A stretch of DNA of 64,000 nt from Alphaproteobacteria bacterium (GTDB taxonomy: Bacteria; Pseudomonadota; Alphaproteobacteria; SP197). The position numbers and the translations under genes were made by a program. The DNA lies in assembly GCA_964291265.2 (NCBI GenBank), contig OZ219747.1:1120001-1184000 (forward strand). Direction: 5' to 3'. Positions 45,546 to 55,304 of the stretch are shown here, piece after piece (positions within the stretch are counted from its first letter, which is position 1; each line of letters starts with the position of its first letter). The notes beneath the pieces are model-generated. The model did no database searches, was not told the origin of the DNA, and saw only the letters and a program-made list of their open reading frames with translations.

Positions 45546-46141
45546 GACGCCGGCGGTTCGTCACGCTTGCGACCAATGGCCTCGTTGCCGATCCGAATGC
45601 CCAGACCGTTGATGATGCGAACCCAATAGGAAAAGCACGCCGCGACCTGGGCGGCCTCGAGAACCTCCACATCGTCGGCGCCGGCGTCGCGGACCCTGGA
45701 GATGTCGTCCTGCGTCATGGCGTCCGGTTCATGGGCGAGCTTGCGGGCGTAGGCGGCCAGCGCCGCGAGCTTGCCGTCCAGAGCATCCGTTTCCCTGCCA
45801 TCCGCCGTCGCGTCCACCATGGCGTCGGCCCTGGCGGAATCGCCGACGAGATGGCGAAGATTGGCGCCGTGGTGGGCCTGGGCGTAGGCGCAGCTGGCGA
45901 GCCGCGCGACCATGGTCGCGATGAGTTCCAGAAACCACTCGGGCAGGATGTTTTCGCTGTTGTGCAGAACAGCGCGATAGTGGCCGTCGGCCCAGCGGAT
46001 CGGTTCCGGGCGCAAGGACATGGCCTTGTAGAGATTGTGTACCGATCCGTCGGTACGCCGGACCAGATCGTAGGTTTCGGCGAGCAGGCCGTCGGCATCC
46101 TCCGGTTCAACAATGCCAAGCCAGCAGATCGGATCGGTCAT
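45542..46141 (-). CDS. AhpD-family peroxidase-related protein
   Basis: VHNLYKAMSLRP, CAYAQAHHG, YARKLA, RIINGLG; paralogue of 41707-42306. Confidence 0.85.
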   Translation of the reverse strand: MTDPICWLGIVEPEDADGLLAETYDLVRRTDGSVHNLYKAMSLRPEPIRWADGHYRAVLHNSENILPEWFLELIATMVARLASCAYAQAHHGANLRHLVGDSARADAMVDATADGRETDALDGKLAALAAYARKLAHEPDAMTQDDISRVRDAGADDVEVLEAAQVAACFSYWVRIINGLGIRIGNEAIGRKRDEPPAS

Positions 46142-46294
46142 CTTGATTCTTCCCCCCGGAGGTCCGTCGTGACGCATGCGCACGGCACCGCTCCTCCTTG
46201 ATCGCCAGCCTAGTCAGCCGGTCCGACGCGCGTCAAGACTGTGATCACAGATTGACAGGAAAGGGCAGGACCGAGCAGATTGCCGGGACGTACC

Positions 46295-46627
46295 GTGGCC
46301 CCCTGTTCCTTCCTACACCTGATGGCGACAGCTCTCGGTCTCGGTCCCCGCCCGGGTCCCGTGTTCGGCCGGGCCGTTCTCCGCAGGCGATACGACGTCG
46401 CGATCATGGGCGGCGCAGGTCACGGTCTTGCGGCCGCATACTACCTGGCCGATGAGCATGGTGTCAGCGATGTCGTGGTCATGGAGAAGGGCTGGTTGGG
46501 CGGTGGCAATACGGGGCGCAACACGACCATGGTGCGCGCCGACTACCTGCTGCCGGACAACCAGGAGTTCTTCGGCCATGCGCGCTCCATGTGGCCGCCC
46601 CTGTCACGCGAGCTCAACTTCAATGTC
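46295..46627 (+). pseudogene. soxB: Sarcosine oxidase beta subunit, 5' fragment
   Basis: YDVAIMGGAGHGLAAAYYLADEHG...EKGWLGGGNTGRNTT...ELNFNV, then an abrupt switch to soxA-like sequence. Confidence 0.8.
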
Positions 46628-47152
46628 ATCGATGTCCCGCCCGAGGCGCTGTCGTTTCCGGGATACCCGGTTCGACGGCGTTCGTGCGCGTGTCTTCCGC
46701 ATCAGCTACTCCGGCCAACTGGCCTACGAAATCCATGTCGGCGCGAAGCACGGCGAACGGTTGTGGGATGCGGTGGCGGCGGCCGGCACGCCCTTCGGCA
46801 TCGCGCCCTATGGCGTCGAAGCCCTTGATGTCATGCGGATCGAAAAGGGCCATTGCGCCGGCAGCGAGTTCGACGGCCGCACGGCACCCGCTGAACTGGG
46901 CCTCGACCGCATGACAGGGCGTGTAAGCGCCAGCATTCCCTTCATCAGCTGTTGGTCGGGTTTCGTCGGACCGGCGCACACCCATTCCTCGCGGCGCGAT
47001 TCTCGTGGCCGGGACGGCACGATCCGAAGCTCTGGGCCACGTGACCGCATCCGTCATCGGTCCGACGCTCGGTCAGCCCATCGCGTTGGCCATGCTCCGG
47101 GGATCGATCGGCGACGATGAACTCCGTGCCGTCTCGTCCGTCGCCGGCCCTC
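46628..47152 (+). pseudogene. soxA: Sarcosine oxidase alpha subunit, 3' fragment (frameshifted, IS21-interrupted; tail at 52484-52550)
   Basis: RVFRISYSGQLAYEI, PYGVEALDVMRIEKGH, GHVTAS..PTLGQPIALAML; tail VETTGLPFYDANGGRMRA* after the transposon. Confidence 0.8.
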
Positions 47153-47220
47153 TGTTGATGGCTGCATAGAACGGCGGGATTTCGGCGATTTGCCGCGCTT
47201 TGTCAGGGTCGTGTTTCTTC

Positions 47221-47311
47221 CCTGTTGTCAGGTCCTATTGTCACGTCCTGTTGTCGTGGGTTCAGTGTTCGGCTGATTGTCTCCCCGAGCGCCGCCCGTT
47301 TTCCTATTGTC
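47221..47311 (+). repeat. Iteron-like CCT(A/G)TTGTC repeats
   Basis: Copies at 47221, 47234 and 47247 (13-bp period) and 47303; near-copy in inverted orientation at 52339-52347. Confidence 0.7.
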
Positions 47312-47636
47312 GTTTTGGTCCGGTTCGGATTGTTCCGTCGGCCTCTGCTTCGGTCTTGGTGACGGTTGCCGGGAGGGTTTCGGTTCCGAGGCACTCGCGG
47401 GATCGTCTGTTTTCCCTGTGGTCTGGGTCGTGTTGTCCGGTCCCGGGGCGGCGTTTTTGCCGCCGCCCCGGGTGGATGCTAGATCGGCATCGAAAGAAAG
47501 AGCGATGCGATGCCGGGCAGAGTTGTGATGACGCCCCCCGGCGCAGCACCCGGACGAGCCGGTCACGGGGGACCGAACTCCCGTGTATTGTCGAGCCATT
47601 TTGCGTCCGGGTCCACCCCCGCTCTCGAGACGGATC

Positions 47637-48113
47637 GTGTGCACGACGGGACGACTGTTCAACTGCAAGCGGTGTCAGCGGCAGGTTGTTCTCTGCCGGT
47701 CGTGTGACCGGGGGCATGTGTATTGCTCCGATGAGTGCAGGGAGCGGTCCCGGATCGAGCGGCGCCGCGCGTCGCGTCGTCGCTACCAGAGCACGCTGAG
47801 GGGCCGTGAGACGGGCCGTCACCGCCAGCGGCGTTACCGGCTCCGCAAGGCGGAGGAGGCGCGTGCGTTGAAGGCCAGGGCGGCGATGCTTGCCGAGATC
47901 ATGGGCACGCAGACGTCTGCTGTGGTGCTGCTTGGCGACGTTCCGGCGGTGTCTGGAGACGCCGGTTCCGAAGAAATCGTTACGGACCACCCTTCCCGAC
48001 TGCTGCCGACCTCCCTACCTGCGGTTGTGAAGGCGCGAGAGCGACGCGAATCGCCGCTTCGGTGCGCCCGGTGCGGACGGGTCGTGACGCATGTGGTGCT
48101 GAGGGACCTGTGA
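47637..48113 (+). CDS. Cys-rich Zn-finger-like protein upstream of istA
   Basis: CKRC..VVLCRSCDRGHVYCSDEC, basic helix RRASRRRYQ, C-terminal CARCG; start uncertain (ORF opens at 47583). Confidence 0.65.
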   Translation: MCTTGRLFNCKRCQRQVVLCRSCDRGHVYCSDECRERSRIERRRASRRRYQSTLRGRETGRHRQRRYRLRKAEEARALKARAAMLAEIMGTQTSAVVLLGDVPAVSGDAGSEEIVTDHPSRLLPTSLPAVVKARERRESPLRCARCGRVVTHVVLRDL

Positions 48114-48145
48114 TGCGGCGTTGAGGAACCAAAGGGAGGGAGTTC

Positions 48146-49639
48146 ATGGCGATCGACGAGGACACGCGGGCGACGATCGTGCGGCTGTCGCGGGCCGAGG
48201 GCTGGGCTGTGGGGACGATTGCCCGGCATCTCGGCGTGCACCACGGCACGGTGACGCGGGCGCTCAAGGCGTCGGGGCAGGAGCGGCGGCCGCGGGCCAA
48301 GCTCATCGACCCCTTCGTTGCCTTCCTCGGGGAGCGTCTTGAGGCGTCGCCGGACCTTCCGGCCAGCACGCTCTGGCGACAGGTCGTGGCCCTGGGCTAC
48401 CGCGGCGGCGAGGATCACTTCCGTCACGACCTGCGCCGCCTCGGGCTGAGGCCGGTGAAGAGGCCCGAGCCGTCGCTGCGGCTGAGCTTCCTTCCGGGCG
48501 AGCAGGCGCAGGTTGACTGGGCCGAGTTCGGGAAGGTCCGCATTGGCCGGGCGGAGCGCAGGCTCATGGGGCTTCTCGTCACCCTCAGCTACTCGCGCCA
48601 GACTGTCCTGAGCCTGTTCCACGACGCGCGGATGGCCAGCTTCCTGCAAGGCCATGTCGAGGCTTTCGCGGCATTCGGGGGTGTGCCGCGGAGGCTTCTG
48701 TACGACAACCTGAAGAGTGCCGTGGTGACGCGCCGCGGCAAGGCGGTCACCTATCATCCGATGCTGCTCGGCCTCGCGGCCCACTATGCCTTCGAACCGA
48801 GCGCCGCCTGGCCCAGGAGCCCGCAGGAGAAGGGCCGCGTGGAACGCCGTGTGCGCTTCGCGCGCACCGGGTTCTTCGCCGGGCGCGACATCACGGTCCC
48901 GCTCGGCGAGCTCAACGCCGCGGTTCGGGAGTGGTGCTTCGGCGCCGCCGCGGAGCGGCCCTGGCCGGACGACGACAGTCTCCTGGTGCGGGACGCCTTC
49001 GCCCGGGAGAGGGAGCACCTGATCGTCCTTCCCGTCGACCCCTTCCCGCATCACGAGGTCCGCCCGGTGCGCATCGACAAGACCTGCCACGCCCGCTTCG
49101 ACACCAACGACTACAGCGTTCCGGGTAGCTTCTCCAAGGCCCTGCTGACGCTGGTCGCCGACCGCGACGAGGTCCGCATCCTCGACGGCGCCGACGAGGT
49201 CGCGCGCCACCGACGCTCCTACGACAGGAAGCAGGCCGTCACCGATCCGGAGCATGCCAGGGCGATCGCCGCGGGCAAGCGGCGGGCCCGCTCCATGAGC
49301 GTCCGCGACCGGGTCCTGCGCACCGTGCCGCGGGCCGAGGAGATGCTGGCGCGCGCCGGGACCAACGGGCGCAACGTGGCCTCCTGCGCCCGGATGCTGG
49401 AGACGCTTCTCAACGCGCACGGCGCCGACGCTCTCGACCGGGCTGTCGCCACGGCGCTGGAGCGCGGCTCGTGCCACCCCGAAACCGTGCGCGTCATCAT
49501 CGAGGAGCGCCGCCGGGAGCAGGGCCTGCCGCCCCTCAGCATCGCCGACGACGGCCGCGGCGGCCGTGGCACGACGCCGCGGGGGACCGCTCTCGACGCC
49601 TACGACAGGCCCGAAGCCAGCGCCAGGAACAAGACATGA
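48146..49639 (+). CDS. istA: IS21 transposase
   Basis: N-terminal HTH, PGEQAQVDW, LSYSR, FGGVP..LYDNLKSAV, EKGRVER; GGGAGG RBS. Confidence 0.93.
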   Translation: MAIDEDTRATIVRLSRAEGWAVGTIARHLGVHHGTVTRALKASGQERRPRAKLIDPFVAFLGERLEASPDLPASTLWRQVVALGYRGGEDHFRHDLRRLGLRPVKRPEPSLRLSFLPGEQAQVDWAEFGKVRIGRAERRLMGLLVTLSYSRQTVLSLFHDARMASFLQGHVEAFAAFGGVPRRLLYDNLKSAVVTRRGKAVTYHPMLLGLAAHYAFEPSAAWPRSPQEKGRVERRVRFARTGFFAGRDITVPLGELNAAVREWCFGAAAERPWPDDDSLLVRDAFAREREHLIVLPVDPFPHHEVRPVRIDKTCHARFDTNDYSVPGSFSKALLTLVADRDEVRILDGADEVARHRRSYDRKQAVTDPEHARAIAAGKRRARSMSVRDRVLRTVPRAEEMLARAGTNGRNVASCARMLETLLNAHGADALDRAVATALERGSCHPETVRVIIEERRREQGLPPLSIADDGRGGRGTTPRGTALDAYDRPEASARNKT

Positions 49640-50337
49640 GCGAGCTCAGGGAGCGTGCCCGGGCGCTCGGCCTCCACGGGCTCGTCGAACGCTGGGACGA
49701 GGTCGCCGGGACCGCATGGATCGAGGAGGTGGTCAGCGGCGAGGAACAGGCCCGCAGGGCCCGCAGCCACGAGCGCCGCCGCGCCGCGGCGCGGCTGCCC
49801 GCCTTCAAGCCCCTGGCGGACTTCGACTGGACATGGCCGCGCGACATCAGCCGGGCTCATGTCGAAGCGCTCCTCGGCCTCGGCTTCGTCGACCGTGCGG
49901 ACAACGCCGTGCTCGTCGGCGGGCAGGGCACCGGAAAGACCATGATCGCCGCCAACGTGGCGCACCAGGCCCTGCTGCACGGCCACACCGTCCGCTTCGA
50001 GAAGGCGCCGGAACTGCTCGAGGCACTCGCCGAGACCGTCTCGCGCAGCGAGCTGCGCCGCCGCCTCGCGATCCTCGCCAGGCCCCGCCTGCTCGTCCTC
50101 GACGAAATCGGCTACGTGACCCTCGAAAGCCACCATGCCGACATCCTCTACGCCATCGTCTCGCGGCGCTATCAGCGCCGCTCGACCATGGTCACGACAA
50201 GCCTCGCCTTCGCCCAGTGGGACCGCGTCTTCCCCAGCGCCTCCGGCATCGCCGGCACCGTCGACCGGCTCATGCACGACGCAACCCTCATCTCCATCGA
50301 CAGCGACTCCTGGCGGCTCAGGCGTGAAACCCGATAA
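49636..50337 (+). CDS. istB: IS21 AAA+ ATPase
   Basis: KPLADFDW, GGQGTGKT, LVLDEIGY, RRYQ, DRLMH, SWR. Confidence 0.92.
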   Translation: MSELRERARALGLHGLVERWDEVAGTAWIEEVVSGEEQARRARSHERRRAAARLPAFKPLADFDWTWPRDISRAHVEALLGLGFVDRADNAVLVGGQGTGKTMIAANVAHQALLHGHTVRFEKAPELLEALAETVSRSELRRRLAILARPRLLVLDEIGYVTLESHHADILYAIVSRRYQRRSTMVTTSLAFAQWDRVFPSASGIAGTVDRLMHDATLISIDSDSWRLRRETR

Positions 50338-51217
50338 ACCCCGCCGCGTCGACTTCGACGCCGTCAAGCGCATGCCGTTCGAACGCATCGCCGCCGACTG
50401 GGGATACGTCCGCGACGAACAGGCCTCGACACGCGCCAACCCCGTCCTGTGCGCACCCGGCCTGCCGAAGCTCGTCACGAAGTGCCTCAACAACGGACAC
50501 TGGGTCTACTTCAACACCCAGAACGATGAAGACAACGGAACCGTCATCGACTTCATGCTCAACCGCGGACTGGCCTTCGCCGACATCTGCACCCGCTTCA
50601 CAGCACCCGACACCGCGCCACGCGACTTCCGCAGCCTCTGGGCCGCGGCAACGCCCGATGCGGCCCCGGACTGGCTCACCGGGCGCGGCATCCTCCCGGA
50701 GACCCTCGACACCTGCCGCCCCCTGGTCCGCCGCGACCACAACGGACGCGTCCTCTTCGCCCATCGCAACAGGAAGCGAAAGCTCACCGGCTTCGAGATC
50801 GGTCCCCCCGACGGACCGAAACGCTTCGCCACCGGTGGAACCCGAAGCCTGTTCGCCGTCCGCGCCGGAACCGCCGCGGACCTCGAGGCCCTCGTCATCA
50901 CCGAAAGCGCCGTCGACGCCCTCAGCCTGGCCCAGATCGACCAATGTCCCCCCAGCCACGCCTTCCTCTCCACCGCCGGGGCACCCTCGCGAAGACAGCA
51001 CGAACAGATCAGCCTCGCCGCAAGCAGCCTGCCCAACGTCAGGACCATCGTCCTCGCCCAGGACCACGACGAGGCCGGAGAGCGACAGGCCGAAACCCTG
51101 CGCAAAAAGATGAAGCTCCCCTCCCACGTCTCGTTCCACAGACGCAGACCGCCGGAAAACGCCGACTGGAACGACGTCGTCAACGCCAGGACCAAAGAAC
51201 CACAAGCGAGATCATGA
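50324..51217 (+). CDS. TOPRIM/primase-like protein (DUF3991 + Toprim type)
   Basis: DNGTVIDF, WLTGRGI, TGFE, F..GG, ITESAVDALS, STAG, AQDHDEAG, DWND; GTG overlaps istB end. Confidence 0.75.
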   Translation: MKPDKPRRVDFDAVKRMPFERIAADWGYVRDEQASTRANPVLCAPGLPKLVTKCLNNGHWVYFNTQNDEDNGTVIDFMLNRGLAFADICTRFTAPDTAPRDFRSLWAAATPDAAPDWLTGRGILPETLDTCRPLVRRDHNGRVLFAHRNRKRKLTGFEIGPPDGPKRFATGGTRSLFAVRAGTAADLEALVITESAVDALSLAQIDQCPPSHAFLSTAGAPSRRQHEQISLAASSLPNVRTIVLAQDHDEAGERQAETLRKKMKLPSHVSFHRRRPPENADWNDVVNARTKEPQARS

Positions 51218-51534
51218 CCACGTCCGTCACAAGGAGACCACTCATGCCCCTCACGCCCGCCGAAAAGCAGCGGCGATACCGGGAACGGCGCAAGGCCGGC
51301 ATCCCTCCCGTCCACACCCCAAAGCATCGTGACCGGCGCTCGCGACCGCAACGCTGGAACGACGCCGTGGCCGAACTGCGCGCCCTGCAGGACGAATGGC
51401 GTGACCGCCTCGACAGCATCCCCGAAACCCTCCGTGACACGCCTTACGGAGAACGCCTGCAGATCGTCGCCGATGCCGACATCGAGGCCCTCGAGGACAT
51501 CGAACCGCCACGCGGCTACGGAAGGGATACGTGA
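51214..51534 (+). CDS. Small hypothetical protein (basic N-terminus, helical C-terminus)
   Basis: LTPAEKQRRYRERRK...RSRPQRWNDAV.EL..LQ.EW...PPRGYGRD; ATGA-coupled to the TOPRIM gene. Confidence 0.65.
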   Translation: MTTSVTRRPLMPLTPAEKQRRYRERRKAGIPPVHTPKHRDRRSRPQRWNDAVAELRALQDEWRDRLDSIPETLRDTPYGERLQIVADADIEALEDIEPPRGYGRDT

Positions 51535-52098
51535 TCCCGCAAGACCCTTGAACGCGGTCACGCGTTACCATCCAGGAATGAGAACGTCTCACCCCGACGC
51601 GCCGCTCAGCCTCCCCGGGAAACTCCCGGGCCGTCCAAACGACACCGCATCACGAGACTGCCGCAGCCGCTGGCCGGACTGGCTTACAGGTCGCAGCATC
51701 CGCCCGAAAACACTCAACGCCTGCCGCACCCTGCAGGACGAATGGCGTGACCGCCTCGACAGCATCCCCGAAACCCTCCGTGACACGCCTTACGGAGAAC
51801 GCCTGCAGATCGTCGCCGATGCCGACATCGAGGCTCTCGAGGACATCGAACCGCCACGCGGCTACGGAAGGGACACGTAATCTCGCAAGACCCTTGAACG
51901 CGGTCACGCGTTACCATCCAGGAATGAGAACGTCTCACCCCGACGCGCCTCTCAGCCTCCCCGGGAAACCCCCGGGCCGTCCAAACGACACCACATCACG
52001 AGACTGCCGCAGCCGCTGAGCCGCAGCAACGCCCGATCCGCCGCCGGACTGGCTCACAGGTCGCAGCATCCGCCCGAAAACACTCGACGCCTGCCGCA
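51383..52098. repeat. Near-identical tandem duplication (~346 bp + ~370 bp)
   Basis: 51383-51672 matches 51729-52018 at offset 346; the second copy has 24 extra bases at 52019-52042. Confidence 0.93.
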
Positions 52099-52320
52099 CC
52101 CTGCGCCGCCGCAACCGCAACGCACGCAGCCTCTTCGCCCAGCGCAACAGAAACCGTCAGCTCTCCAGCCTCGAGATCGTCCCGCCCGACGAACCACGAC
52201 GAGGACGGAGAACGCCAGAACGAAACCACGCGCAAAAGCCTGAAGCTCCCCTCCCACATCACGTTCCACAAACGCCGAACGCCAGAAAACGCCGACCGGA
52301 ACGACATCGTCAACGTCAAT
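51987..52320 (+). pseudogene. Diverged, internally deleted second copy of the TOPRIM gene
   Basis: Aligns by eye to ~50609-50810 and ~51061-51188, with an in-frame TGA replacing TGG and the middle segment missing. Confidence 0.8.
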
Positions 52321-52546
52321 GCAAGACCAATGGGATCCAACAATAGGCAGAAAACAAAGACCGGGCGGACCTTCGTCCAATGCCGCACGTTCTCCTGTCG
52401 TGGTCACCCACTCACACGATCAGCGCCCAAAAGAGCGGTTCTCCGCCAATATCCCGCCGTTCTAAATCGCCGCCGACACCCTCGATTGTCGCGGTGGAGA
52501 CCACCGGTCTGCCCTTCTACGATGCCAACGGCGGCAGGATGCGTGC

Positions 52547-52930
52547 ATGACCGCGTTGTCGGATATCGCAGCGCAGCCATCAACACATGGACCGGATCAG
52601 GCACGAGCTGTTGACACGGATCAGCGAAGCCGCGCACGAGAGATCAAGGACGGTGATGATGCTCGGCGGACAGCGGAATGGCTCATCCTGGACGGGGAGT
52701 CAGATGGTGTGGCGACTGCTCAGCCGTTCATCGTGTTTGAGGAAAGCGACGCGTGGGAGAAACCGTCGCACGGTTCTGCCCGATCGATGCCGGCGCTGAC
52801 ACGGGATTCGAAGGAACTGCCTGGGCCGCCGGTTTCGCCAGACAGCCATCGTGATGCCACGATCAGCCGGCGAGATCGCGATCCTCGTACCGCGCAGCTC
52901 CGCGGCGTCCCTCGTCGTCCTGGTCCGTGA
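52547..52930 (+). pseudogene. soxG: Sarcosine oxidase gamma subunit remnant
   Basis: ATG overlaps the soxA stop; EWLIL, EESDAW and (shifted frame) VARFCPID motifs. Confidence 0.55.
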
Positions 52931-52935
52931 CGCGA

Positions 52936-53649
52936 TCACGCGCTCCGATTCGTCGATGCGCTCCGGCTGACCGATACGTCGCTGTCGGCCAGTTGATCGT
53001 AGACCTTCATGCCCCAGCCAATGTCCTGTTCGACCAGATCGCGTGCCAGCCTGGCGTTGCGGGCCCGAATGGCATCGGCAATGTGCGCGTGGAGCAGGCG
53101 CCAGTCCTCGGTCGTCTCCAGGGCCCGTACCACATCGGCAAGGTAGGGTCCCGACTGCGCCCACAATCCCTCGATGATCGACGTCATCTCCGGATTGCCG
53201 GCGCCGGCATAGATGGTGAAGTGAAAGGCGTAGTTGTTGGCGAGATAATCCCCCCTGACGCCACTCTCGATGTCCCTGTTCGTCTGGTGCGCAAGCGTCT
53301 CCAGCCGGTCGATCCCGGCCAGGGTCATGCGCGGCGTGGCGAGTTCCGTTGCCGCGCCTTCCAGGTTGGCGCGCAGGAAGAAGAGATCGGAAACGCGCGC
53401 AGGATCGAGCTTGGGAACGCGGAACGAGCGGTTCGCGGAGGCGATGAGGGCGCGTTCCGATGCCAGGCGCTTGAGCGCTTCGCGTACCGGCGTCATGCTG
53501 GTGCCCACCCTCTCGGCCACCGTGCGGATGGACAATGCAGCGTCAGGGCCGTGCTCGCCGACGATCAGCGACCACTTGAGCCGCTGGTAGATCTGATCGC
53601 TGAGCGACATGTCGCTCAGCGTGGATCGTGAGTTCCCGCCGCGCCCCAT
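52936..53649 (-). CDS. GntR family transcriptional regulator (FCD)
   Basis: SLSDQIYQRL, GTSMTPVREAL, RANLEG, NYAFH; start may be 53610. Confidence 0.9.
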   Translation of the reverse strand: MGRGGNSRSTLSDMSLSDQIYQRLKWSLIVGEHGPDAALSIRTVAERVGTSMTPVREALKRLASERALIASANRSFRVPKLDPARVSDLFFLRANLEGAATELATPRMTLAGIDRLETLAHQTNRDIESGVRGDYLANNYAFHFTIYAGAGNPEMTSIIEGLWAQSGPYLADVVRALETTEDWRLLHAHIADAIRARNARLARDLVEQDIGWGMKVYDQLADSDVSVSRSASTNRSA

Positions 53650-55304
53650 CAGTTTCCGGCGGCGTGCTGGCCGGTCCGGCGCCGGTGTTCCATGACGGTC
53701 TCGAGCCAGCCGACCCTGAGGTCGGGAACGGACCTCAACAGGAGATCGGTGTAGTCATGGTGGGGCGGCCGCAGCACCTCGGCCGTTGGACCCGTTTCCA
53801 CGATTTCGCCGTCACGCATGACCGCCACCCGGTCGGCGATGCGCGCGATTGTCGAGATGTCGTGGGAGATGAAGATGTAGGCCACGTTCAACCGGTCCTG
53901 CAGGGAAACAAGGAGATCCAGGATGGCTTCGGCCACCACCGTGTCGAGGGCCGAGGTGATTTCGTCGCAGATGATCAGCCGGGGATCGGCGGCAAGCGCC
54001 CGGGCCAGGTTGACCCTCTGCTTCTGACCGCCTGACAGCTCGCGCGGAAAGCGCCGTGCCATGGCGGGGTCGAGACCGACCAGCTCCAGGAGTTCGCCGA
54101 CCCGGCTCTCGATCGCCCGGCGATCCGCACCAAGATAGAACGCCAGCGGGCGACCCAGGATCTTCGAGACGGCGTGCCGCGGATTGAGCGCCACATCGGC
54201 CATCTGGAAGACGATCTGAACCTCGCGCAACTCGTCGCGTGTGCGTTGCTTCAGCGAGGCGGCGAGCGGCCGTCCCCTGAGGAGAACCCCGCCTTTCCAG
54301 GGCGCCATGAGGCCGCTGATGACACGGCCAAGTGTCGATTTTCCCGAACCGGATTCACCGATGACGCCGACGGTCTCCGCGGCACGCACGTCAAGGGAGA
54401 CATCGCGCAAGGCCGGCACCTCCCGCTGGCGACCATACCCGGCCGAGACACCCTTGACCGAAAGCAGGTGCGCCCCGTCGCCCCGCGATGTTCTCTGCGT
54501 CACCTCCGCCGGCATGACATGGGCGGCGGCGATCAACTGCCTTGTGTAGTCCTGTCGCGGAACGGTGATGATCGTTTGCGTGGGGCCGTACTCGACCATG
54601 CGGCCGTCCCTGAGCACCAGAATCTCGTCGGCGATCTGGGCAACGACGGCGAGGTCATGACTGACATAGATGGCCGAGGTCCGGTTTTCGCGAACCAGGT
54701 TCTTGAACGCCTGCAACACGTCGATCTGGGTCGTGACGTCGAGTGCGGTGGTCGGCTCGTCGAGGATCAGGAGCTTCGGGCTGCACATCATCGCCATGGC
54801 TGCCATCAGGCGCTGCAACTGGCCGCCGCTGACCTGGTGGGGGTAGCGTCGGCCGATGGTTTCCGGCGACGGCAAATCCAGTTCGCCATAGAGCGCGGCT
54901 GCCTTGCGGGTAGCGTCATCCTGGCTCATCAGGTTCCGGATCTGCGGGACCTCGGTGACCTGGCGGTTGATCGAGAGCGCGCTGTTGAACGACGCGGCGG
55001 CACTCTGGGCGACGTAGGAGATGTCGACGCCACGAACCTGTCGACGACCGGCGAGGTCCAATTGCAGCACGTCGGTGCCGTCAAGCAGGATCTCGCCTCC
55101 CTTGAAGGCACAGCCTGGACGGGTATAGCCCAGACAGGCAAGCGAGATGGTCGTCTTTCCCGATCCGGACTCACCGATCAGCGCGACCACCCTGCCGGGA
55201 GCGACCGAAAACGAGACATTCTGGACGATCGGTGTGCGTTCGCCGCGTTTGGCAATGGCGTCGATCGACAGGTTCTTTACATCGATGACGTTGCCGGTCA
55301 TCAC
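53649..55304 (-). CDS. Peptide-type ABC transporter ATP-binding protein (two NBDs)
   Basis: GESGSGKTT and [40 protein letters not shown]. Confidence 0.93.
   Translation of the reverse strand: MMTGNVIDVKNLSIDAIAKRGERTPIVQNVSFSVAPGRVVALIGESGSGKTTISLACLGYTRPGCAFKGGEILLDGTDVLQLDLAGRRQVRGVDISYVAQSAAASFNSALSINRQVTEVPQIRNLMSQDDATRKAAALYGELDLPSPETIGRRYPHQVSGGQLQRLMAAMAMMCSPKLLILDEPTTALDVTTQIDVLQAFKNLVRENRTSAIYVSHDLAVVAQIADEILVLRDGRMVEYGPTQTIITVPRQDYTRQLIAAAHVMPAEVTQRTSRGDGAHLLSVKGVSAGYGRQREVPALRDVSLDVRAAETVGVIGESGSGKSTLGRVISGLMAPWKGGVLLRGRPLAASLKQRTRDELREVQIVFQMADVALNPRHAVSKILGRPLAFYLGADRRAIESRVGELLELVGLDPAMARRFPRELSGGQKQRVNLARALAADPRLIICDEITSALDTVVAEAILDLLVSLQDRLNVAYIFISHDISTIARIADRVAVMRDGEIVETGPTAEVLRPPHHDYTDLLLRSVPDLRVGWLETVMEHRRRTGQHAAGN

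Follow-up and report, generated by a model that had tools for sequence, protein, structure and literature searches.

Positions 47153–52478 of a 64,000-nucleotide (nt) stretch of contig OZ219747.1 from an alphaproteobacterium (GenBank assembly GCA_964291265.2; the whole stretch is termed the window) are an active insertion sequence (IS) of the IS21 family that contains a TOPRIM primase-like gene. The genome termed G000 has 30 full copies of it. The + strand of the element shows an excess of G and T at its left end that changes gradually to an excess of A and C at its right end. It is an IS21 variant carrying cargo that resembles a primase. Its skew is a strong example of a gradient found more widely in insertion sequences, which depends on the host and not on an element gene. 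Since other elements share the skew, the finding is of less special interest than was at first supposed.

Composition gradient within the element

All called genes of the element (orf1, istA, istB, the TOPRIM gene and a passenger gene) are on the + strand. Positions 47221–47280 contain A5 C13 G18 T24, and positions 52201–52260 contain A20 C22 G14 T4. An earlier note on this DNA, made from the letters alone, had drawn attention to these two segments; its base counts are exact and the skew is real. In 250-bp bins the keto skew, (G+T−A−C)/n, starts at +0.33 on the left and reaches about −0.3 in the final 1.5 kb, and flanking bins are within ±0.06. At the right end A is abundant and T scarce (AT skew +0.30 to +0.42). 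The mirror statistic (first third minus last third) is 0.39 in the element; the background in 388 non-repeat 5.3-kb intervals of G000 has a mean of 0.004, a standard deviation of 0.045 and a maximum of 0.245.

Synonymous positions display the same trend. The G+T fraction at four-fold degenerate sites drops by quarter (0.67, 0.43, 0.21), and the gradient over 614 sites has rho = −0.33 (p = 1.4e-17). Four-fold G:C counts are 35:16 in the first sixth of istA, and G8–10 to C32–46 across three parts of the TOPRIM gene. This bears out the shift from G-ending codons in early istA to C-ending codons in the TOPRIM gene that had been proposed by eye. After correction for amino acid content the residual is +0.24 in orf1, +0.18, +0.04 and −0.03 in successive thirds of istA, −0.16 in istB and −0.27 in the TOPRIM gene. 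The background intervals and the corrected residual reject chance and amino acid content as causes of the skew. Inheritance from the flanks is also rejected, the flanks having values of −0.007 and +0.002.

The change along the element is a ramp rather than a step. Over 731 sites the Akaike information criterion is −1162 for a linear model, −1140 for a step and −1047 for a flat profile, so that the linear model is ahead of the step by 22; pooled relatives also show a ramp. The mirror-image skew of the earlier note stands, with a ramp in place of the switch. The gradient crosses the host baseline at element position 2058 (near 49210, in istA), and the crossing would lie near the middle if about 1 kb of late right-end additions is set aside.

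Within coding DNA the effect of gene orientation is inseparable from that of position, as just one reverse gene was seen in the elements whose ends were located, a nested transposase-like gene (L227). The orientation-free evidence therefore comes from the non-coding arms.

Gradient in other elements and hosts

A sample of 167 IS21 loci was reduced to those with a near-full istA followed by a near-full istB, and after removal of near-identical loci 84 remained. Kin are not independent, and the slope tallies overstate significance. All eight TOPRIM-bearing elements slope (adjusted value 0.26). Among the 76 in which no full TOPRIM gene was scored, 62 have a slope of the same sign, although some metagenome contigs stop soon after istB, where a TOPRIM gene is not excludable, and L208 has a TOPRIM stub. 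The slope is found in 49 of 53 of the elements without TOPRIM with a GC content of at least 0.64 (0.19) and in 11 of 17 with a GC content below 0.6 (0.03). With all hosts pooled the eight TOPRIM elements are steeper than the 76 others (Mann-Whitney p = 0.008), but host matching removes the difference: the nine elements without TOPRIM from related hosts all slope, at 0.27 as compared with 0.26. A like pattern in IS21 elements lacking the TOPRIM gene is what the earlier note had set beforehand as counting against its proposal of an element-specific or TOPRIM-dependent mechanism, and that proposal is not sustained.

The gradient extends beyond IS21, to IS66, ISKra4-like, ISAs1, IS1380 and IS630 elements. 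In G000, 17 of 18 delimitable IS families slope the same way, 11 of them at p<0.01. The value is 0.71 for IS66c and 0.74 for the ISKra4-like element, on par with a second primase-bearing element (0.70, see below); the IS21 element of the window has the largest fitted amplitude in G000, 0.98. In relatives, 14 of 14 distinct IS630 elements (from 30 loci) slope at 0.26, and 10 of 11 IS256 elements (from 14 loci) at 0.17. Class-wide searches for IS5 and IS3 gave few loci (11 and 4), and the three elements scored in each case all slope. For 712 host genes the slope is 0.000 ± 0.069. The IS4 and IS1634-like families of G000 average 0.24 as against 0.52 for the rest (p = 0.056), a hint that transposition mechanism matters, though IS630 slopes clearly.

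Among 14 named plasmid elements three slope at p<0.05 (a Sphingomonas IS21, a Streptomyces IS66 and a Bradyrhizobium IS66), and ISKpn7 leans the opposite way (p = 0.049); two further loci were left unscored as they have no complete gene. The gradient is absent from the low-GC, enterobacterial and firmicute elements tested. It is common to elements with and without TOPRIM, and is therefore not element-specific.

Mutational evidence

The right end of the element contains dead duplicates of TOPRIM segments. With eight outgroups to polarise the changes, their branch shows 12 G>A and one C>T (p = 7.5e-5; 20 differences are ambiguous), six C>A and one G>T (p = 0.26), three G>C and three T>C. In these dead copies the excess of G>A points to mutation rather than selection. 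When read on the bottom strand, whose 5′ end is at the right edge, the changes are C>T and G>T, which are typical of damage or miscopying on an exposed strand. The suggestion in the earlier note that each end is exposed as single-stranded DNA fits the G>A excess; its restriction to this element does not hold.

Terminal-branch rates at four-fold sites, which are partly circular with composition, are C>T 0.029, G>A 0.008, G>T 0.031 and C>A 0.010 in the first third of istA, and flip in the TOPRIM gene (C>T 0.007, G>A 0.018, G>T 0.009, C>A 0.039). Outgroup-polarised variants of two TOPRIM families fit on the right side, with 19 G>A and 13 C>T (p = 0.047).

Chromosome replication was rejected as the source. 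The copies face both ways: of the 29 on C2 of G000, 14 have istA on the leading strand (no orientation bias), so that an effect of chromosome replication would cancel. In addition, leading and lagging genes of the chromosome differ only slightly, 0.450 and 0.414.

Explanations for the gradient

The explanation favoured here, held with slightly less than even confidence, is that the gradient, shared by most IS families of the host group, is written by mutation as repair-type synthesis enters from a flanking 3′ end, either at duplication of the element or at refilling of the donor site. Synthesis would start at the element edge and run inward, as we infer for copy-out, replicative transposition and gap repair after cut-and-paste. 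The strand with its 5′ end at the leading edge would be both the newly made and the displaced strand; either end could lead, and the meeting point would vary. If that strand acquires C>T, G>T and C>G changes, the outcome would be a linear ramp that mirrors itself; the changes might come from damage to the displaced strand or from errors in the new strand. Replicative transposition and donor-gap repair after cut-and-paste share the same edge-inward geometry. Copy-out is outlined as primed from a flanking 3′-OH, with IS21 among the circle-forming families (10.1101/2023.06.07.543989), and one IS21 study refers to copy-out for this family “as has been proposed” (PMC11208146).

Several observations weigh against edge-inward synthesis. 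The IS1634-like family of G000 slopes in reverse (−0.21), and amplitude is unrelated to copy number (rho = 0.15) or length (rho = 0.26). Isolated rare variants in 22 families with at least four copies are near-symmetric, with a per-site C>T/G>A ratio of 1.11 on the left and 0.94 on the right; the sole departure is A>G/T>C on the right (7 and 15, p = 0.015). On the left side the polarised variants of the two TOPRIM families do not fit (C>T 11, G>A 17, p = 0.46). Symmetry of recent variants is expected if most arose in copies resident in the chromosome, but by this reasoning the mutation load of each duplication must be high in order to beat symmetric mutation between moves. A group II intron, which moves through RNA, slopes too (0.47, p = 0.003) and fits recombination better. 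Paralogue families not recognised as IS slope weakly (27 of 42, mean 0.045, p = 0.006), and some of these resemble missed transposases.

Recombination between dispersed copies is the likeliest alternative, though a doubtful one. Like edge-inward synthesis, it gives the right sign for every IS family. Breaks inside a repeat would leave invading 3′ tails; to the left of a break the top strand would be exposed and to the right the bottom strand, and the average over many breaks would be a linear mirrored ramp without transposition. Mosaicism among the 30 copies is heavy. The four-gamete test fails for 1916 of 4005 site pairs, and the failing fraction climbs from 0 for adjacent sites to 0.56 for sites more than 3 kb apart. 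RecA and MutS are present in the genome and no Ku was found there, and the slopes of the intron and, weakly, of the paralogues fit as well. However, slope does not follow copy number, and a 17-copy AAA/PD-(D/E)XK family and a 13-copy Rpn family have slopes of only 0.07 and 0.08, as compared with 0.26 for IS630 and 0.17 for IS256. Edge-inward synthesis is preferred over recombination because these abundant non-IS families fall well short of both IS families in slope.

Selection at the ends is improbable. Rho prefers C-rich, G-poor RNA; a C-poor start would let the weakly translated element RNA escape Rho, and C-rich ends on both strands would halt outward transcription through the inverted repeats. 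The direction of the G/C skew, the near-symmetry of recent variants and the host dependence agree with this. Yet the right end is rich in A and poor in T, the dead duplicates gained A far above C (the G>A and C>A changes as against G>C and T>C), and the ramp extends over 4 kb of coding sequence. Still less probable is host transcription entering from either flank and mutating the non-template strand, which would be the top strand on entry from the left and the bottom strand on entry from the right. Such transcription would account for the polarity whatever the IS family, and a non-template strand is expected to gain C>T and G>T changes. But the keto fraction is 0.50–0.51 in spacers between same-direction host genes and 0.50 in the least GC-biased host genes, far below 0.67, and transcription should bias the rare variants of resident copies, of which there is no sign in the 22 families.

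The earlier note had also likened the junction of the two ends to a bidirectional origin. In this model the origin would lie on a circle replicated by IstB and the TOPRIM protein, and the skew would be its leading/lagging signature. The sign of the skew matches, because forks from such a junction run inward as well. The TOPRIM gene is intact and conserved, the TOPRIM elements are steeper over all hosts, and the amplitude in G000 is unsurpassed. The difference vanishes, however, against the nine related-host elements, one-gene IS630 and ISKra4-like elements slope, as do other elements without a replication gene, and the ramp is a better fit than the step. An origin is therefore not needed, and as a cause of the skew it is largely refuted and now very hard to credit.

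A bolder form of the edge-inward synthesis explanation is unlikely as a whole. It holds that in GC-rich hosts (alphaproteobacteria, actinobacteria) each IS duplication uses edge-primed, strongly error-prone synthesis, with imuB-dnaE2 a candidate, that the gradient records copying frequency and leading end, and that two unrelated IS lineages captured a plasmid primase, one of them with a helicase, to fill the displaced strand. An imuB-like gene is located beside an error-prone dnaE2 at G000:C2:1346908-1349921. ImuABC is linked to G:C>C:G changes in Caulobacter in one review, which also places it in Pseudomonas and Ralstonia (PMC3901139). Three IS21 elements tested from Pseudomonas and Ralstonia do not slope, and ImuABC as the cause is only a lead.

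Structure and copies of the element

The ends of the element are exact, TG at 47153 and CA at 52478, and a 5-bp target duplication flanks them. The empty site is present in a contig of run X2, where 47147 is joined to 52479. Target duplications of 5–7 bp are found in 26 of the 30 full copies in G000. The features are as follows (window positions, strand).

47148–47152, +: left copy of the target-site duplication, 5 bp (empty site in run X2)
47153–47201, +: left end, opening with TG, and its terminal inverted repeat (35 nt, 77% complementary to 52430–52464; start common to full copies)
47153–47582, +: left arm, non-coding and rich in G and T (keto skew +0.33, next +0.10; with a hairpin at 47442–47472 and short direct repeats)
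47583–48113, +: orf1, Cys-rich protein of 176 amino acids (aa), no named family (upstream of istA in most related IS21 elements)
48146–49639, +: istA, IS21 DDE transposase (NF033546, 222 bits, cut-off 160; Mu-transpos_C_2 match)
49636–50337, +: istB, AAA+ helper ATPase directly 3′ of istA (PF01695, 171 bits, cut-off 24; NF038214, 191 bits, just below the cut-off of 200)
50324–51217, +: DUF3991 + TOPRIM primase-like gene (PF13155, 50 bits, cut-off 22; overlaps the end of istB)
51244–51534, +: passenger gene of 96 aa, no named family (78% identity to a gene in an IS110 element of the same genome)
51673–52318, +: degraded second copies of TOPRIM segments and of the passenger gene end (G>A and C>A excess in the TOPRIM pieces)
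52430–52478, −: right terminal inverted repeat with CA end (inverted-repeat match, shared copy ends)
52479–52483, +: right copy of the target-site duplication, 5 bp

Four features of IS21 membership are present: an IstA DDE transposase, IstB next to it, inverted repeats ending in CA and a short target duplication. IS21 duplications are described as short, often 5 bp, and IS21 ends as having at least two repeated transposase-binding units each, L1/L2 and R1/R2 (PMC11208146). A search for one 17-nt repeat core through 260 nt at either end, with a threshold of 11 matching positions, gave the terminal copy and no second one. The same four-gene layout is found in alphaproteobacterial assemblies, many labelled Paracoccaceae.

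No circle or tandem end-to-end junction was found in G000 or in contigs of runs X1–X3, but contigs drop rare forms, so that absence does not follow. In X1 the contig depth is about 2000 within the element and 62–63 outside; this agrees with the chromosomal copy count, although depth is no copy number. Copies are inserted into other copies, including inside istA and TOPRIM (G000:C2:4059791-4072207 and 4238189-4248078), and there is therefore no strict target immunity.

The left-arm hairpin, in a stretch first picked by eye, has a 12-bp stem and −20 kcal/mol; none of 200 shuffles is as stable. An Rfam scan of 46000–54000 gave no matches, a sigma-70 promoter scan no sites, and a terminator scan one as compared with 3.6 expected. 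The insertion target (window positions 46280–47150) is a broken oxidoreductase/aminomethyltransferase gene pair, with DAO and GCV_T pieces. In run X3 this region has insertions of 8 and 15 bases relative to the window.

Accessory genes and related elements

The Cys-rich orf1 is kept upstream of istA in most of 80 metagenome relatives. It has no Pfam or NCBIfam family and matches only unnamed Atlas clusters.

In the TOPRIM protein the acidic residues E193, D246, D248 and D280 are invariant across 36 aligned proteins, and the ratio of non-synonymous to synonymous change (dN/dS) is 0.34–0.49 against three relatives. The protein has a profile match to 1nui, the primase domain of phage T7 gp4 (E = 5.6e-9), and tblastn matches in 450 plasmid records, Agrobacterium and Rhizobium foremost. 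The gene was likely captured from a plasmid, because its relatives sit on rhizobial plasmids. It is within IS termini in eight distinct relatives. During copy-out the protein may serve to prime the displaced strand. The left 300 nt of the element contain 11 T7-type primase sites as compared with 5.1 expected (a post hoc comparison). Left ends of eight other TOPRIM elements have 27 (16.9 expected) and those of 25 other elements 40 (34.5 expected), kin again not being independent; right ends of the same elements show no excess.

The passenger gene has a weaker skew (−0.10), as expected if it was acquired later. It moves between IS families, being present in IS110 in G000 and in IS21 elements without TOPRIM in relatives (L072, L211, L223).

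The second primase-bearing element, 5160 bp in length, is at G000:C2:460796-465955 (L238; also L055) and has seven left and seven right end motifs. Its genes encode an rve transposase (IS481-like, below cut-off), an AAA_22 ATPase, an AAA_25 helicase-like protein and a DUF3991 + TOPRIM protein. It displays a mirror gradient too, and a relative is multi-copy in G005 (L216–L219).

A DruA (Druantia) domain is fused to or precedes several IS4-like and ISAs1-like transposases of G000 (L057:2043-4415, L068:3332-4990, L070:2136-4346). A short D12 adenine-methyltransferase-like match is at or within IS66b and an IS4-like transposase (L053:1984-2604, L066:2320-3564, L072:1378-2040). The group II intron, present in 16 copies, adjoins or lies inside IS66 sequence in several loci (L054:2267-3604, L086, L087, L089).

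Significance and comparison with known systems

If the gradient is a copying scar, the route of IS multiplication could be read from sequence in uncultured bacteria, including the elusive step at which cut-and-paste elements increase in number. Such a scar would also reveal a mutational process about 10 times more strand-biased than chromosome replication of the same cell, in some phyla only. With the gradient as a guide, IS ends could be easier to locate and passenger genes could be dated. Second-strand priming in copy-out transposition is a separate matter, on which the primase-bearing IS21 subgroup offers a lead. No published description of the pattern or of the element was found among titles and the beginnings of abstracts, with most subscription journals outside the coverage.

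Skews of chromosomal replication, in GC and AT, and the single-strand-time gradient of vertebrate mitochondria have G over C and T over A, an excess of C>T on one strand and a change of sign at a boundary. The gradient described here differs in its scale of 1–5 kb and in being tied to element edges, not to an origin. Its four-fold swing is about 0.46, as compared with 0.036 between leading and lagging genes of the same chromosome. A study of IS orientation relative to chromosomal GC skew deals, in outline, with how elements face the fork (PMC3971601), whereas the skew here is one of internal composition, in an element that shows no bias of orientation.

Plasmid DUF3991 + TOPRIM proteins and the T7 gp4 primase domain share with the element's protein the domain pair and the acidic TOPRIM residues; here the gene is inside IS termini and overlaps the end of istB. 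The element resembles the IS21 family, as represented by the IS5376 structures and related work (PMC10122671, PMC11208146), in its istA-istB order, TG..CA ends, inverted repeats, mostly 5-bp duplications and many dispersed copies. It differs in its 5.3-kb length and in the addition of orf1, the TOPRIM gene and the passenger gene. E. coli IS21, IS100, ISKpn7 and IS712 are without the strong mirror gradient seen here.

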